A stretch of 64,000 nucleotides of DNA from Alphaproteobacteria bacterium (lineage in GTDB: Bacteria; Pseudomonadota; Alphaproteobacteria; RF32; CAG-239), in contig JAFXPE010000032.1 in the NCBI GenBank assembly GCA_017528205.1, forward strand, positions 145,986 through 209,985. The letters are read 5' to 3'. Of this stretch, positions 15,124-58,644 are shown one piece after another (within the stretch, counting starts at the first letter, position 1; the number at the start of each line of letters is the position of its first letter). Made by a program: the position numbers and the translations under genes. The notes beneath the pieces were generated by a model. That model was not told the DNA's origin and did not search any database. It saw only the letters and a program-made list of their open reading frames with translations.

Positions 15124-15151
15124 TTGCAATTTAGCGTTGATACGCTAATAT
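15124..15151 (+). promoter_or_regulatory. sigma70-like promoter (TTGCAA-N16-TAATAT) of leader RNA copy 1
   Basis: -35/-10-like hexamers conserved in identical arrangement upstream of copy 2 at 58202..58229. Confidence 0.55.
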
Positions 15152-15155
15152 AAGT

Positions 15156-15308
15156 CCGTCGGCGAGAGGTCGTCGGCGGAGTGTAACGGCTCCTTATACT
15201 GTATTGACTCCTCTGCAATGGGGAGCCGGTTGAATATATTGAATAAACCGGACTGCTAGTATAACAGTCGTTAACTCCCCACCTTAAAGGAATTTAGGGT
15301 GGTTTTTT
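15156..15308 (+). ncRNA. structured leader/sRNA element copy 1 (unclassified), ending in an intrinsic terminator
   Basis: Conserved blocks shared with copy 2 (GAGAGGTCGT, GGGGAGCCGGTTGAATATA, ACCGGACTG, AACTCCCCACCTT.AAGGAATTT.GGGTGGTTTTT). The 5' hairpin 15156..15179 has compensatory changes between the copies. Terminator hairpin 15279..15302 plus T-run. Confidence 0.5.
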
Positions 15309-15340
15309 GTTGTGATATTAACAAAAGAGGAGTTACGAAA

Positions 15341-15568
15341 ATGAGAATAAAGAGTTGTTGTATGGATAAACAAACCATACAAGAAATCGGTCATCAACTA
15401 TGGCAAATGCGTCAAGAACGCAGAATGTATCTGCATACGGTATCTTTTCAAACCCGAATTCCCGAAAGAGTAATAGAAGGTATGGAAATCGGTAAGTTTA
15501 TTAAATATGCACCATTACGCTGTTTAATAGCGTTCTACGGTAAAAAGATGCGGATTGTTTTTGAATAA
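15341..15568 (+). CDS. small XRE-family helix-turn-helix protein (paralog 1)
   Basis: 76 aa; IGHQLWQMRQERRMYLHTVSFQTRIPERVIEGMEIG HTH core. Paralog of 58417..58644. Start 15341 preceded by an AGAGGAG SD; the ORF-track start 15299 lies inside the terminator. Confidence 0.7.
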   Translation: MRIKSCCMDKQTIQEIGHQLWQMRQERRMYLHTVSFQTRIPERVIEGMEIGKFIKYAPLRCLIAFYGKKMRIVFE

Positions 15569-15618: not shown

Positions 15619-17832
15619 TTAGCTCAAAGGAGCGTCCATTTCAAATCCGGCGCTGTCATCCTCTTCGGCGTTGTATTCAATGCCCAATTTGGCCAGCATA
15701 TCGTCATTAATATCTTCACGCTGTGCCACAATCCAATCCGGAACATTCGGGCAAGCAGGCAACTTCGCCAATTTGCTCATTCTTTTATCCAAATACCAAC
15801 GCGGAGAGTCGGCAATAATCGGGCGGTCGATATGGCTTTGCATCAACACCACTTGCTTTAACATCGGCAAACTCAACAGCTGTGTCGAGCTGATAACCGG
15901 AATGCCTTGCAACTGATAGTTAACGTTTTTCGCCAGCGGGTTAAAGTCTTTACCCAAGCTACCCTCTGTTCGTGAAAATGACGAAATACGCACGGTTTTG
16001 TTACCAATCATCTTAGAGAAACGTTGTGCCGTAACTTCGTTGTTTTGCGAAAGAATAACTTTGCAGGCGGTGGTAGAAATCACCGTTTCCAAATCATCTT
16101 TTCCGTATTTGCCGGAGATTTGGCCCAAGTCTTGTCCGATTAGCAAATAAGACACTTTTTGACCACGACCTACGGCCGGTCCGTCGATAATAGCTTTCAT
16201 CTTAGGCATTTGCGGAAACTCGTCGAGCACGAACAACGCAGGGAAAGGTCCCATTTTGCCGTCGGTACGGTTAACGTGATTCGGCGGATTGGAAATCAAA
16301 TAAGACGACATCAACTCAATAAAGGTAGAGCTGATAACGCCCAACGCACGCGCATCAACCTGGTTAACCGACAGATATACGGAAATCGGCTTCCATTCTC
16401 CGGTAACCGGATCTTTCATACCGCGCAAATCCTTAAACAACAAATCCGAAAAACTTGTCCGCGCTTTAACCGCTTGGTTCTTGAATACGTTAATGCCGGC
16501 AAATGCAGTAGAAAGAATGGAACCGCGCTCTTTATCCGGAGTGTTGCTCAAGGTGCTCAATTCCGTAATGCAACGCTGAGCATAACCATAATTACGGGCT
16601 TCCTTAATTGCTTCTTCAAGCATATCTTTAGTCGGGTCGGCCATGGCCGCCATCTGATCGCCTTCGTCCAAACGACGTTGAATTTCGTGAGCGGCGTTGA
16701 TTTGCGCCTCCGTAATCCATTCCATAATCATGGCAATGCAAGCCTCACGTCCCATCCAACGCGATGGCAGCAAATTCCACGTTCCGATAGGTAGATAATT
16801 TTCCATGGTCAGTGTGCCGTTTTTCAAATTTTGTAAAGCACGTTGAACTCCCGGATCACGCATATCCATATAATAACCTTCGAGAACTTCCTTATCTTTT
16901 TCATCAAGCTTGCCTTCATAAATGCGGCCGATAAAATAATCGTTGGCACGGGCACGCTCACATTTGGAAACCACAAATTGAATAAATCCGGTTAAGGCTG
17001 CACGACCGGTTTGTGACCAGTGCGGATCGGCGCCGCCTTTCGGATCTTCAACCAAAATGTTACACATGGAATCCACATACATATCGCGGTCCGGACCTTG
17101 TTCCGGAATACAGCTCGGCGACAGCGGGTTCCAACTCGGATAATAAATGCCTTCACTCGGATTATCTTCTGCACCCCAGTTAATGATAAACACCGGCCCC
17201 ACTTTGGCGCGAGCACCCGAAGTGTTATAACAAAGCTCCGGTTTCGGGTCGTTAATCACCAAACTGAGCTTGTCGGAATTGAAAATCGTCGGAATCACCA
17301 CGCCGGCGGTTTTACCGGTACCAGGAGGTGCGCAGCACAGCGTGGCCAAGGTTTCTTTTAACATTAAAAATTTGCCGTCAAACTTGCCGACAACCTGGCA
17401 GAAACCGTCAAAACCCAACAGCGACATTTTCTTAATGTCGCGCAAATCGGCAATTTTGGCCTGACCTTGATAGTTAACCTGAAACTTATACGGACTGAAA
17501 ATGGCGCTGACAATCAAACCGAGCGGAATGGTAATAAACGGCAACAGCGGAATCCACAAACTGAGCGAAAACCCGCCTTGGTGATTCCACAGCTGATGTC
17601 CCCATTTTCCATACATGGTAAACAAGTGATTAGGATCTCTGGCAATAAGCGCCAAAAACTTCTGAATGACATCGGTTGAGGACTTAGAAACGCCGTGTCC
17701 CACCAAATAAGAAAGCGGTAGGGCGAAAATAAATAAAATTATGCTTAACACAAGGCAAATCAAGAAAGTTACCGTCATCCACCTGACGGCTTTGTCATAT
17801 TCTTTCCATTCTTCACCGCGATCGTTTGCCAT
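15619..17832 (-). CDS. type IV secretion/conjugation coupling ATPase, VirD4/TraG/DotL family
   Basis: Two N-terminal TM helices, Walker A LCCAPPGTGKTAGVVIPT, Walker B ALFVLDEFPQMP, conserved IGQDLGQI..GK region, acidic C-terminal tail; 737 aa. Confidence 0.8.
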   Translation of the reverse strand: MANDRGEEWKEYDKAVRWMTVTFLICLVLSIILFIFALPLSYLVGHGVSKSSTDVIQKFLALIARDPNHLFTMYGKWGHQLWNHQGGFSLSLWIPLLPFITIPLGLIVSAIFSPYKFQVNYQGQAKIADLRDIKKMSLLGFDGFCQVVGKFDGKFLMLKETLATLCCAPPGTGKTAGVVIPTIFNSDKLSLVINDPKPELCYNTSGARAKVGPVFIINWGAEDNPSEGIYYPSWNPLSPSCIPEQGPDRDMYVDSMCNILVEDPKGGADPHWSQTGRAALTGFIQFVVSKCERARANDYFIGRIYEGKLDEKDKEVLEGYYMDMRDPGVQRALQNLKNGTLTMENYLPIGTWNLLPSRWMGREACIAMIMEWITEAQINAAHEIQRRLDEGDQMAAMADPTKDMLEEAIKEARNYGYAQRCITELSTLSNTPDKERGSILSTAFAGINVFKNQAVKARTSFSDLLFKDLRGMKDPVTGEWKPISVYLSVNQVDARALGVISSTFIELMSSYLISNPPNHVNRTDGKMGPFPALFVLDEFPQMPKMKAIIDGPAVGRGQKVSYLLIGQDLGQISGKYGKDDLETVISTTACKVILSQNNEVTAQRFSKMIGNKTVRISSFSRTEGSLGKDFNPLAKNVNYQLQGIPVISSTQLLSLPMLKQVVLMQSHIDRPIIADSPRWYLDKRMSKLAKLPACPNVPDWIVAQREDINDDMLAKLGIEYNAEEDDSAGFEMDAPLS

Positions 17833-58229: not shown

Positions 58230-58234
58230 TAACT

Positions 58235-58382
58235 CCGCAGACGAGAGGTCGTTTGCGGAGTTTCACAACTCCTCTCTTGAAATAACTCCTCTTAACGGGG
58301 AGCCGGTTGAATATACCGAATAGACCGGACTGACAAGAGCAGTTGTGAACTCCCCACCTTGAAGGAATTTGAGGTGGTTTTT
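58235..58382 (+). ncRNA. structured leader/sRNA element copy 2 (paralog of 15156..15308)
   Basis: Same conserved blocks; 5' hairpin 58235..58258 with compensatory substitutions relative to copy 1; terminator hairpin 58353..58376 plus T-run. Confidence 0.5.
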
Positions 58383-58416
58383 GTTTTTAAATTAACAAAA
58401 TCAGGAGTTCAAAACA

Positions 58417-58644
58417 ATGGGAAAATATGAATATTTTGTAGATAAAGAAACCCAAAAAGAAATCGGACACGAATTGTGGAAAATACGTCAGGAAAAACGC
58501 TTGTTGTTGCATCAGGTGCAAAGCAAAACGCATGTTCCAGAGCGGATTATTGATGGCATAGAAATCGGCCGTCATCTTAATTACGGAATGGTACGCAAAC
58601 TCATTAAATTTTACGGCAAGAATATGCTGGTGGTATTTGAATGA
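58417..58644 (+). CDS. small XRE-family helix-turn-helix protein (paralog 2)
   Basis: 75 aa; IGHELWKIRQEKRLLLHQVQSKTHVPERIIDGIEIG; AGGAG SD. Confidence 0.7.
   Translation: MGKYEYFVDKETQKEIGHELWKIRQEKRLLLHQVQSKTHVPERIIDGIEIGRHLNYGMVRKLIKFYGKNMLVVFE

Follow-up and report, generated by a model that had tools for sequence, protein, structure and literature searches.

Tandems of structured RNAs and XRE-type regulators

In Bartonella, nine highly expressed, structured RNAs of 194-203 nucleotides (nt), known as Brt1-9, each lie directly 5' of a promoterless gene for an XRE-type helix-turn-helix (HTH) protein (trp1-9; PMC5387305). Deletion of the 3' stem-loop of Brt1 de-represses trp1, an XRE gene without its own promoter (PMC8070961, PMC5387305). 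Heme was suggested as the signal, and a dual role in cis and in trans was proposed (PMC8070961). The Brts were reported to be specific to Bartonella. Here we analyze a stretch of 64,000 nt from an alphaproteobacterium (contig JAFXPE010000032.1, positions 145,986 to 209,985), which we will call the window. Its forward strand contains two paralogous units, each with a leader of ~190 nt and then an open reading frame (ORF) that encodes a 75-amino-acid XRE-type HTH protein. This is the first parallel to the Brt/Trp arrangement that we could find outside of Bartonella.

The Brt/Trp tandem is the closest known system to these units, in the sense that the two work similarly, not that they belong to the same family. 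Both are found in Alphaproteobacteria; both pair a very stable, structured RNA of ~150-200 nt with a small XRE-type HTH gene that lies directly 3' of it on the same strand; and both occur as several paralogous pairs per genome. The HTH gene also lacks an evident promoter of its own in both systems. (In our units, only ~35 nt lie between the leader's terminator and the ATG, which leaves no room for a separate promoter.) Finally, the 3' stem-loop of Brt acts as an attenuator, and the leader has a terminator hairpin and a U-run, from which we infer attenuation.

Our comparison uses one Brt sequence, from plasmid pBGR3 of Bartonella grahamii (locus L039). We verified this Brt (L039 26470-26680) with the published 29-nt probe, which matches exactly at L039 26641-26669, and with the site of the BrtR primer, which matches with one mismatch. 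In the minimum free energy (MFE) structure of this Brt, a GC-rich hairpin is enclosed by pairing between UUUUAACUCCC and the Shine-Dalgarno (SD) region, GGGGGGAAUUAAAG. Our leader has the same topology, with AACUCC, the terminator, and GGAGUU following one another. Published accounts of Brt refer to this structure only as a terminator or a riboswitch-like stem-loop. The pBGR3 Brt (L039 26470-26700) also carries several GGGAG and CUCCC/CUUCCC blocks, and ~500 nt 5' of it, on the - strand (L039 25880-25967), there is a near-threshold match to the sRNA-Xcc1 family of Rfam (49.5 bits, with a gathering score of 53).

We did not detect homology between the two systems. Our covariance model of the leader (R1) scored at most 5.3 bits on the pBGR3 Brt locus, even with the filters off. 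Comparing the HTH family to the pBGR3 Trp with hhalign gave a probability of 0.3% (both are XRE-type folds), and among plasmids, blastn found nothing for the leader and tblastn found no Bartonella match. Brt itself is not in Rfam, as there was no match over the verified pBGR3 locus. The proteins also differ in size (108-152 amino acids for the Trp proteins versus 75 here), and, unlike the leader with its canonical terminator, the 3' hairpin of the pBGR3 Brt lacks a U-run immediately 5' of the gene.

Alphaproteobacteria also contain small RNAs (sRNAs) with anti-SD motifs of the CCUCC type, such as the cuckoo or CcsR-type RNAs. Such sRNAs, of which BbsR14 from Bartonella bacilliformis (PMC7717549) is another example, resemble the leader in that one terminator-ended small RNA has several CUCC-type motifs complementary to SD sequences. 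However, the CU motifs of anti-SD sRNAs act in trans, from hairpin loops in which they are exposed. In the leader, three CU tracts are paired to GGAG-type blocks of the same RNA, and the RNA is strictly linked to one gene.

A conserved leader upstream of a small XRE-type gene

In copy 1, the leader (15154-15340) precedes the ORF at 15341-15568, with the ATG at 15341. In copy 2, the leader (58232-58416) precedes the ORF at 58417-58644, with the ATG at 58417. (Positions are those of the window, and all features of these units are on the + strand.) The two leaders are 83% identical and the two proteins are 51% identical; that is, the leader is more conserved than the coding sequence.

We found all of the homologous loci by searching for the HTH protein. 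This identified four genome loci, all in metagenome-assembled genomes of uncultured Alphaproteobacteria from the rumen. Further retrieval gave 54 homologous protein clusters, 13 metagenome loci, and 21 more contigs. We used MAFFT to align 30 distinct homologous leaders, all from rumen or gut Alphaproteobacteria and all 5' of a 75-amino-acid XRE-type HTH gene; the comparative results below are for these 30 leaders. Wherever there was enough upstream DNA, the leader was present once, directly 5' of the HTH gene (35 of 35 places, which are 33 loci and the two copies in the window). It was absent elsewhere in the 204 kb that we examined. Within the window, R1 found only the two copies, at 198 bits and, for copy 2, 190 bits. 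A pattern scan of viral contigs gave 0 matches to the leader. Because the gene neighborhoods vary from locus to locus, the leader and the HTH gene form a self-contained module.

The window has no match to any of the 4227 families of Rfam 15 at the gathering threshold. At E ≤ 10, there was nothing in copy 1, and copy 2 had only chance-level matches to miRNA and sRNA families. By these comparisons, the leader is a new and previously undescribed family of structured RNA that lies 5' of a small transcription-factor gene of the XRE type. With 30 distinct sequences and 23 covarying pairs, it is a well-supported addition from rumen and gut metagenome bacteria to the families in Rfam 15.

The product of the HTH gene is, by its predicted structure, a small XRE-type DNA-binding regulator. 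It has a weak match to HTH_25, a search against sequences in PDB gave only weak XRE matches, and there was nothing in NCBIfam or PHROGs. Its AlphaFold model (pLDDT of 83.6) is similar, according to Foldseek, to HipB, to the DNA-binding domain of BldD, and to C-proteins (TM of about 0.72).

The consensus fold

We derived the fold from the alignment with RNAalifold and by counting pairs. It comprises a hairpin (P1), a helix of ~20 base pairs (P2), a three-way junction with two more hairpins (P3 and P4), and an intrinsic terminator. The consensus has 44 pairs, with 97.9% of cells paired and with two-sided changes in 23 pairs (197 cells). None of 500 shuffles was as good, and slid controls had 34-45% of cells paired. 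The MFE structure of the terminated transcript reproduces the consensus in nearly all of the sequences, and the z-scores for the stability of the fold are -6 to -7.

P1 (15158-15177; GTCGGCGA / TCGTCGGC) has eight pairs, four of which changed on both sides, with 99.6% of cells paired; its loop is mostly AGAGRU. It is followed by a GGAGU block (15178-15182), the 5' GGAGU, which closes P2 by pairing with ACUCC (15274-15278). This closing helix is in the RNAalifold consensus (columns 27-31:125-129) and is nearly invariant. The 5' strand of P2 (15184-15201) has a lower part, TAACGGCT (15184-15191), and an upper part, TATACTG (15195-15201). The 3' strand (15257-15273) has the upper part TAGTATA (15257-15263) and the lower part AGTCGTTA (15266-15273). 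Compensatory changes are found in four pairs of lower P2 and seven pairs of upper P2, with 95-99% of cells paired, and these are the pairs with the highest mutual information.

The three CU tracts are distributed across this fold. Tract 1 (CTCCTT, 15190-15195) is within P2: lower P2 includes its CT as paired bases, and a conserved CC/C internal loop contains its CC. Tract 1 could instead form a small hairpin with the 5' GGAGU (columns 27-31:38-42), which is 100% paired; the fifth pair is UA in 19 leaders, UG in 9, and AU in 2. Tract 2 (GACTCCTCT, 15206-15214) contributes CTCCTC to P3 (15206-15225), where it is paired with GGGGAG (15220-15225). P3 is in the RNAalifold consensus, and 97% of its cells are paired, but it cannot covary because both sides are invariant. 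The third tract, T-AACTCC (15272-15278), is the 3' strand of the helix that closes P2 and lies directly 5' of the terminator.

P4 (15226-15255) is formed by CCGGTT / AACCGG. It has a loop of 14 nt, GAATATATTGAATA (15232-15245), and is followed by the invariant junction ACTG (15252-15255). Five of the six pairs have compensatory changes (for instance, CCGATG/CATCGG). The loop (as RNA, GAAUAUAUUGAAUA; 58309-58322 in copy 2) is nearly invariant in the 30 leaders. It is a direct repeat, GAAUA-N4-GAAUA, and its variation is confined to the two bases at its center (UU, CC, CA, GC, or UC). The loop could be an extended non-canonical helix that is capped by a tetraloop, or it could be a site for a protein or ligand.

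The intrinsic terminator (15279-15308) was identified by a terminator scan and has a stem of 10 base pairs, CCACCTTAAAGGAATTTAGGGTGG, and then TTTTTT. All 30 leaders have the hairpin and the U-run; the U-run is invariant, and the stem differs by lineage with compensatory changes (GC in 16 leaders and AU in 14, or CG in 21 and AU in 9). Next is a conserved spacer (15303-15328), in which the U-tract can pair with a CAAAA-rich stretch just 5' of the SD; the MFE folds include this predicted hairpin, P6. P6 is U/A-rich, has weak covariation, and would place the SD beside AACUCC in the read-through RNA.

The SD region (15326-15335) is AGAGGAGTTA, with the core GGAGTT at 15329-15334. GAGUU is invariant (30 of 30 leaders) and GGAGUU is found in 29 of 30. 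The only leader without GGAGUU, L019, is a natural SD variant (GATGAGTT / GAUGAGUU), and it differs from L020 only in the SD (GAUGAG versus GAGGAG). Among the other GGAG-type SDs in the window, just 2 of 15 have TT next.

We also considered another hairpin (GACTG/CAGTC), enclosed by GGGGAG:CTCCCC. The homologues place its supposed loop in the 3' strand of upper P2, and we rejected it.

Which CU tract may pair with the Shine-Dalgarno sequence

The original prediction for this locus, which was made from the two copies, was that the leader contains duplicated anti-SD tracts that change in step with the SD of the gene that follows. The sequences that it quoted are present: CTCCTT (15190-15195), GACTCCTCT (15206-15214), and the SD AGAGGAG (15326-15332) in copy 1, and AACTCCTCT (58267-58275 and again at 58284-58292) and the SD AGGAGTT (58403-58409) in copy 2. 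Also, the CU tracts are not due to chance, given how often they occur. CTCC is found 3-4 times per leader of ~190 nt, versus 1.4 times per kb in the window, which is roughly a 12-fold enrichment. ACTCCTC has 7 matches on the two strands of the window, versus 1.5 expected. All three of the matches on the + strand are in the two leaders, and one of the four on the - strand is the SD of copy 1 (GAGGAGT on the + strand).

The covariation, however, disappears once the two copies are aligned. Tract 2 is ACTCCTCT and the core of the SD is AGGAGTT in both copies. The pairs that had seemed to covary (CTCCTCT with AGAGGAG in copy 1 and AACTCCT with AGGAGTT in copy 2) were taken from different parts of conserved sequences that the copies share. 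Tract 2 differs between the copies only in its 5' base, G versus A, which converts a G.U pair to an A-U pair opposite an unchanged U. This is a more general caution: complementarity between a CU-rich tract and an SD is guaranteed by composition, and two paralogues cannot show covariation.

In the alignment, each of the three CU tracts could pair with the SD in 82-91% of cells, simply because neither side varies and any CUCC is complementary to any GGAG. So, only the variable flanks can distinguish the tracts. For tract 1 and the SD, there is no covariation (490 of 500 shuffles were equally good). For tract 2 and the SD, there is a weak signal in the flank, where columns 64:182 are UA in 16 leaders and AU in 5, and 10 of 30 leaders cannot form the adjacent pair (63:183). 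Also, the leading AA of tract 2 is not conserved, whereas the UU of the SD is invariant. For the third tract, (N)AACUCC, the pair that flanks the SD helix (columns 123:191) is GC in 18 leaders, UA in 7, and GU in 4, with none scored as unpaired. In an unbiased scan of all columns against all columns, this pair had the strongest covariation off the main fold, with mutual information of 0.80. When run on the 3' part alone, RNAalifold gives a helix between N-AACUCC and GGAGUU-N that encloses the terminator.

We computed partition functions at 39 °C and averaged the pairing probabilities over the leaders. The mean probability was about 0.88 for tract 2 with GGGGAG, but 0.01 for tract 2 with the SD and 0.04 for tract 1 with the SD. 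For AACUCC it was 0.57 with the 5' GGAGU and 0.27 with the SD. We also forced each pairing and computed the median cost above the MFE. This was 0.0 kcal/mol for the 5' GGAGU with AACUCC and 0.7 kcal/mol for the SD with AACUCC, versus 7.5 kcal/mol for the SD with tract 2, 6.8 kcal/mol for the SD with tract 1, and 7.0 kcal/mol for GGGGAG with CUCCCC. The SD:AACUCC pairing is least favorable in L019, whose variant weakens the SD (5.6 kcal/mol).

The third tract, AACUCC, directly 5' of the terminator, is likely the true anti-SD. Sequestration of the SD by a CU tract, as originally proposed, is likely to be right in outline, but it would involve the third tract rather than tracts 1 or 2.

A proposed terminator in series with a translational gate

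We lean towards the view that this is a structured leader in which the fold described above is combined with attenuation by the terminator and with a gate on the SD, because the 5' GGAGU and the SD compete for AACUCC. Under this model, transcription from the conserved promoter would yield an RNA of ~150 nt that folds into P1, P2, P3, and P4, as the comparative analysis shows. The intrinsic terminator, ~35 nt 5' of the start codon, would then attenuate transcription, to judge by its sequence and by the precedent of Brt in Bartonella. Given an intrinsic terminator before the start codon, most transcripts probably stop there.

Only read-through RNA could yield the HTH protein. There, the SD, GGAGUU(N), and the 5' GGAGU would compete for (N)AACUCC, which is suggested by the one covarying pair, by the invariance of GGAGUU, and by the energy calculations. 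If P2 is fully closed, then the SD would be free. If the base of P2 is open, then AACUCC would sequester the SD, with the terminator hairpin enclosed between them. Because these states have almost equal predicted energies in all 30 homologues, they fit a bistable translational gate that has been selected. Because the SD is 3' of the terminator, the transcriptional and translational controls would act in series. The conserved junction (ACUG and an A-rich linker) and the loop of P4 are candidate sensor surfaces.

This model would also explain why the GGAG and CUCC blocks are invariant while the other stems covary freely. Each of these blocks would have at least two partners, and together they would be anchored to an SD that must also match the 16S rRNA. 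More broadly, modules of this kind could be modeled as a terminator followed in series by a gate on the SD, with the 5' GGAGU and the SD competing for one AACUCC.

Several observations weigh against this model. The SD:AACUCC helix consists of one covarying pair and otherwise of invariant pairs. The U:A class of that pair (123:191) may be a single clade, in which case it reflects few independent events, and L009 has a G/A mismatch there. The energies are nearest-neighbor predictions at equilibrium for the full-length RNA, rather than for co-transcriptional folding. We found no conserved antiterminator among the 30 leaders that would account for read-through. Because the loci were retrieved via the HTH protein, copies of the RNA that lack the gene could have been missed. 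Finally, both the promoter and the start of transcription are predictions from sequence, in an uncultured organism.

As to antiterminators, the original prediction was that the CTCC tracts could pair alternatively with GGGGAG, to give competing antiterminator and anti-SD conformations. Tract 2 does pair with GGGGAG, in P3, but tract 1 lies in P2. A fold that combines GGGGAG:CUCCCC with tract 2:SD is coherent, but it has a median energy about 7 kcal/mol above the minimum. We rejected GGGGAG(+1):CUCCCC(+1) as an antiterminator, as its flanking pair (70:132) is unpaired in 7 of 30 leaders and is not significant (48 of 500 shuffles were equally good).

Another candidate involves the 3' strand of P1. 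In leaders with CCGACCG-type terminators (L008, L011, L019-L022, L030, and L037), this strand, UCGUCGG, is complementary to the 5' strand of the terminator, CCGACCGA. This pairing would extend P2. As it is incompatible with P1 and with the terminator, it could serve as an antiterminator specific to this lineage. The complementarity is limited to the CCGACCG-type terminators and is absent from the CCACC-type terminators of the window, and we rejected it as a conserved antiterminator.

ANTAR-type antitermination, as reportedly described by Ramesh et al. in 2012, involves a tandem pair of hairpins, each with a hexaloop that has A at position 1 and G at position 4; the second hairpin overlaps the terminator. 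In the leader, only the AGAGRU loop of P1 fits the rule for the hexaloop. There is no second hairpin over the terminator and no adjacent ANTAR gene, so we rejected this possibility as well.

The leader also resembles riboswitches and other cis-acting leaders whose expression platforms are both transcriptional and translational. It has a conserved and covarying domain with multiple helices, an invariant junction and loop, and an intrinsic terminator, and an alternative pairing, which shares a strand with the closing helix of the domain, could sequester its SD. On the other hand, it matches none of the 4227 Rfam families, and no antiterminator competes with its terminator. Nothing points to a ligand, as the only associated gene encodes a transcription factor and the neighborhoods vary. 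A broader proposal, which we consider only tentatively and think rather unlikely, is that the leader represents a new class of sensor RNA, which could be a riboswitch or could respond to a bound factor. The three-way junction and the P4 loop would bind the ligand, and the five or six invariant SD-like or anti-SD-like blocks would act together as a switch with multiple states, linking termination to exposure of the SD. Together with Brt/Trp, this would be a wider alphaproteobacterial design of an attenuator RNA with an XRE regulator. The significance of the family would grow if a ligand or factor were found, or if the element sheds light on the mechanism of Brt.

Alternative explanations

The reading closest to the original prediction is that the duplicated anti-SD tracts 1 and 2 sequester the SD and alternatively pair with GGGGAG, with GGGGAG:CUCCCC as the antiterminator. 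These tracts do complement the SD in 87-91% of cells, and in most of the sequences, forcing SD:tract 2 and forcing GGGGAG:CUCCCC gave the same energy, which implies one coherent alternative fold. Forming GGGGAG:CUCCCC would cost the terminator stem its first 2-3 pairs, and there is the UA16/AU5 signal at 64:182. Also, in three leaders (L026, L027, and L034), CUCCC-G-ACC replaces CUCCCC at the foot of the terminator and UGGU precedes GGGGAG, which puts GGU-G-GGGAG opposite CUCCC-G-ACC. This is the only hint of covariation for a GGGGAG antiterminator, and these leaders may be a single clade. Yet the fold lies at a median of 7-7.5 kcal/mol above the MFE, and the pairing probabilities of both tracts with the SD are very low (0.01 for tract 2 and 0.04 for tract 1). 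As described above, tract 1 does no better than shuffles, tract 2 has a broken pair (63:183, in 10 of 30) and an unconserved AA opposite the invariant UU, and the flank of the antiterminator (70:132) is unpaired in 7 of 30 leaders, with 48 of 500 shuffles as good. The pairing also crosses P2, which is strongly supported, and an antiterminated state whose SD is sequestered would be self-defeating. We therefore find this reading quite improbable. If the SD helix instead involves AACUCC, as we prefer, it might simply melt with temperature. The helix is short (6-7 base pairs), some loci adjoin hsp20 or dnaK, and the same idea was raised for Brt (PMC8070961). But an RNA thermometer seems very improbable: the predicted accessibility of the SD rises only from 0.28 at 25 °C to 0.30 at 39 °C and 0.34 at 50 °C, and the probabilities of its partners barely shift. 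Heat-shock neighbors are found in only 2 of roughly 12 neighborhoods, there is no match to ROSE or to any other thermometer in Rfam, and the large conserved three-way junction and the invariant loop would be superfluous. In Bartonella, transcription of trp is unaffected by temperature (PMC8070961).

The other two alternatives ascribe a different role to the RNA or its loop. The terminated RNA of ~150 nt might act mainly in trans, which has been proposed for Brt1, as a stand-alone sRNA whose CU tracts are seeds for the SDs of other mRNAs, with read-through into the HTH gene being secondary. Anti-SD sRNAs do occur in Alphaproteobacteria, and this would fit the strong and conserved terminator and the very stable fold (z-scores of -6 to -7). 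There are also precedents in Bartonella, where Brt RNAs are abundant, trp mRNAs are scarce, and a dual role was proposed (PMC5387305), and where BbsR14 of B. bacilliformis is an anti-SD sRNA (PMC7717549). We think that a mainly trans-acting role is unlikely, however. All three CU tracts are paired in the terminated RNA, in both the consensus fold and the MFE structures, so none is exposed as a seed. At the loci that we retrieved via the protein, the RNA was never apart from the HTH gene, and the spacer, the SD, and the covariation at the flank of the SD are conserved together with the RNA, which points to a function in cis. Alternatively, the element could respond to a protein: the HTH protein or another factor would bind the P4 loop or the junction, or the matching DNA (TTGAATA-TA-TTGAATA), and so autoregulate termination or translation. 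XRE regulators are commonly autoregulatory. The stems around the P4 loop and the ACUG junction covary, but the loop and the junction themselves hardly vary, the loop is the direct repeat GAAUA-N4-GAAUA, and the leaders have no conserved RNA-only antiterminator. On the other side, the model of the protein is a standard DNA-binding XRE fold in which nothing suggests that it binds RNA, and the P4 loop is ~75 nt 3' of the inferred start of transcription, which would be unusual for an operator. This explanation is doubtful as well.

Promoters, copy 2, and neighboring genes

A putative sigma-70-type promoter for copy 1 (15124-15151) has a -35 hexamer of TTGCAA (15124-15129), a 16-nt spacer, and a -10 hexamer of TAATAT (15146-15151). 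Both hexamers are retained at a fixed spacing 5' of the 30 leaders, and they fall below the threshold of our scan for consensus promoters. Transcription of copy 1 would begin near 15156-15159. Between the -35 and the -10 of copy 1, and overlapping the -10, there is an inverted repeat, TTAGCGT-TGAT-ACGCTAA (15131-15148). Other copies have TTGCA-N-TGCAA palindromes around the -35, such as TTGCAAATTTTTGCAA in L034 and TTGCATTTTGCAA in L012. The HTH protein might bind these repeats as operators to regulate its own gene; their sequence is not conserved.

In copy 2, P1 is at 58237-58256 and is followed by GGAGT (58257-58261), tract 1 (CTCCTC, 58269-58274), tract 2 (AACTCCTCT, 58284-58292), GGGGAG (58297-58302), and P4 (58303-58328). 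The third tract, G-AACTCC, is at 58347-58353. The terminator, which was also found by the terminator scan, is at 58354-58377 plus the T-run, and the SD, GGAGTT-C, is at 58404-58410. P1 of copy 2 can be extended (58232-58236 with 58257-58262), as a fourth CUCC (AACUCC, 58231-58236) is complementary to the 5' GGAGUU; L035 is similar. This fourth tract lies very close to the -10 of copy 2 and may not be transcribed. We also considered a leader peptide in copy 1 (ATG GGG AGC...), and rejected it because copy 2 has ACG in place of the ATG.

Copy 1 is flanked by marC and a traG/virD4 gene, and copy 2 is flanked by trxA and rplQ. The traG/virD4 gene (15619-17832, - strand) encodes a TraG/VirD4-type coupling protein for type IV secretion and converges on copy 1. 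Adjacent to it is a gene for a 496-amino-acid protein (17848-19338, - strand) with a long, acidic, low-complexity center that is rich in lysine and arginine, and with no match in Pfam. With these two genes nearby, copy 1 may adjoin an element that is conjugative or integrative. At other loci, dnaK and an AAA+ gene are nearby (L018 and L031) or hsp20 is convergent (L019-L021); these neighborhoods with chaperone genes are too few to indicate an association with the modules.

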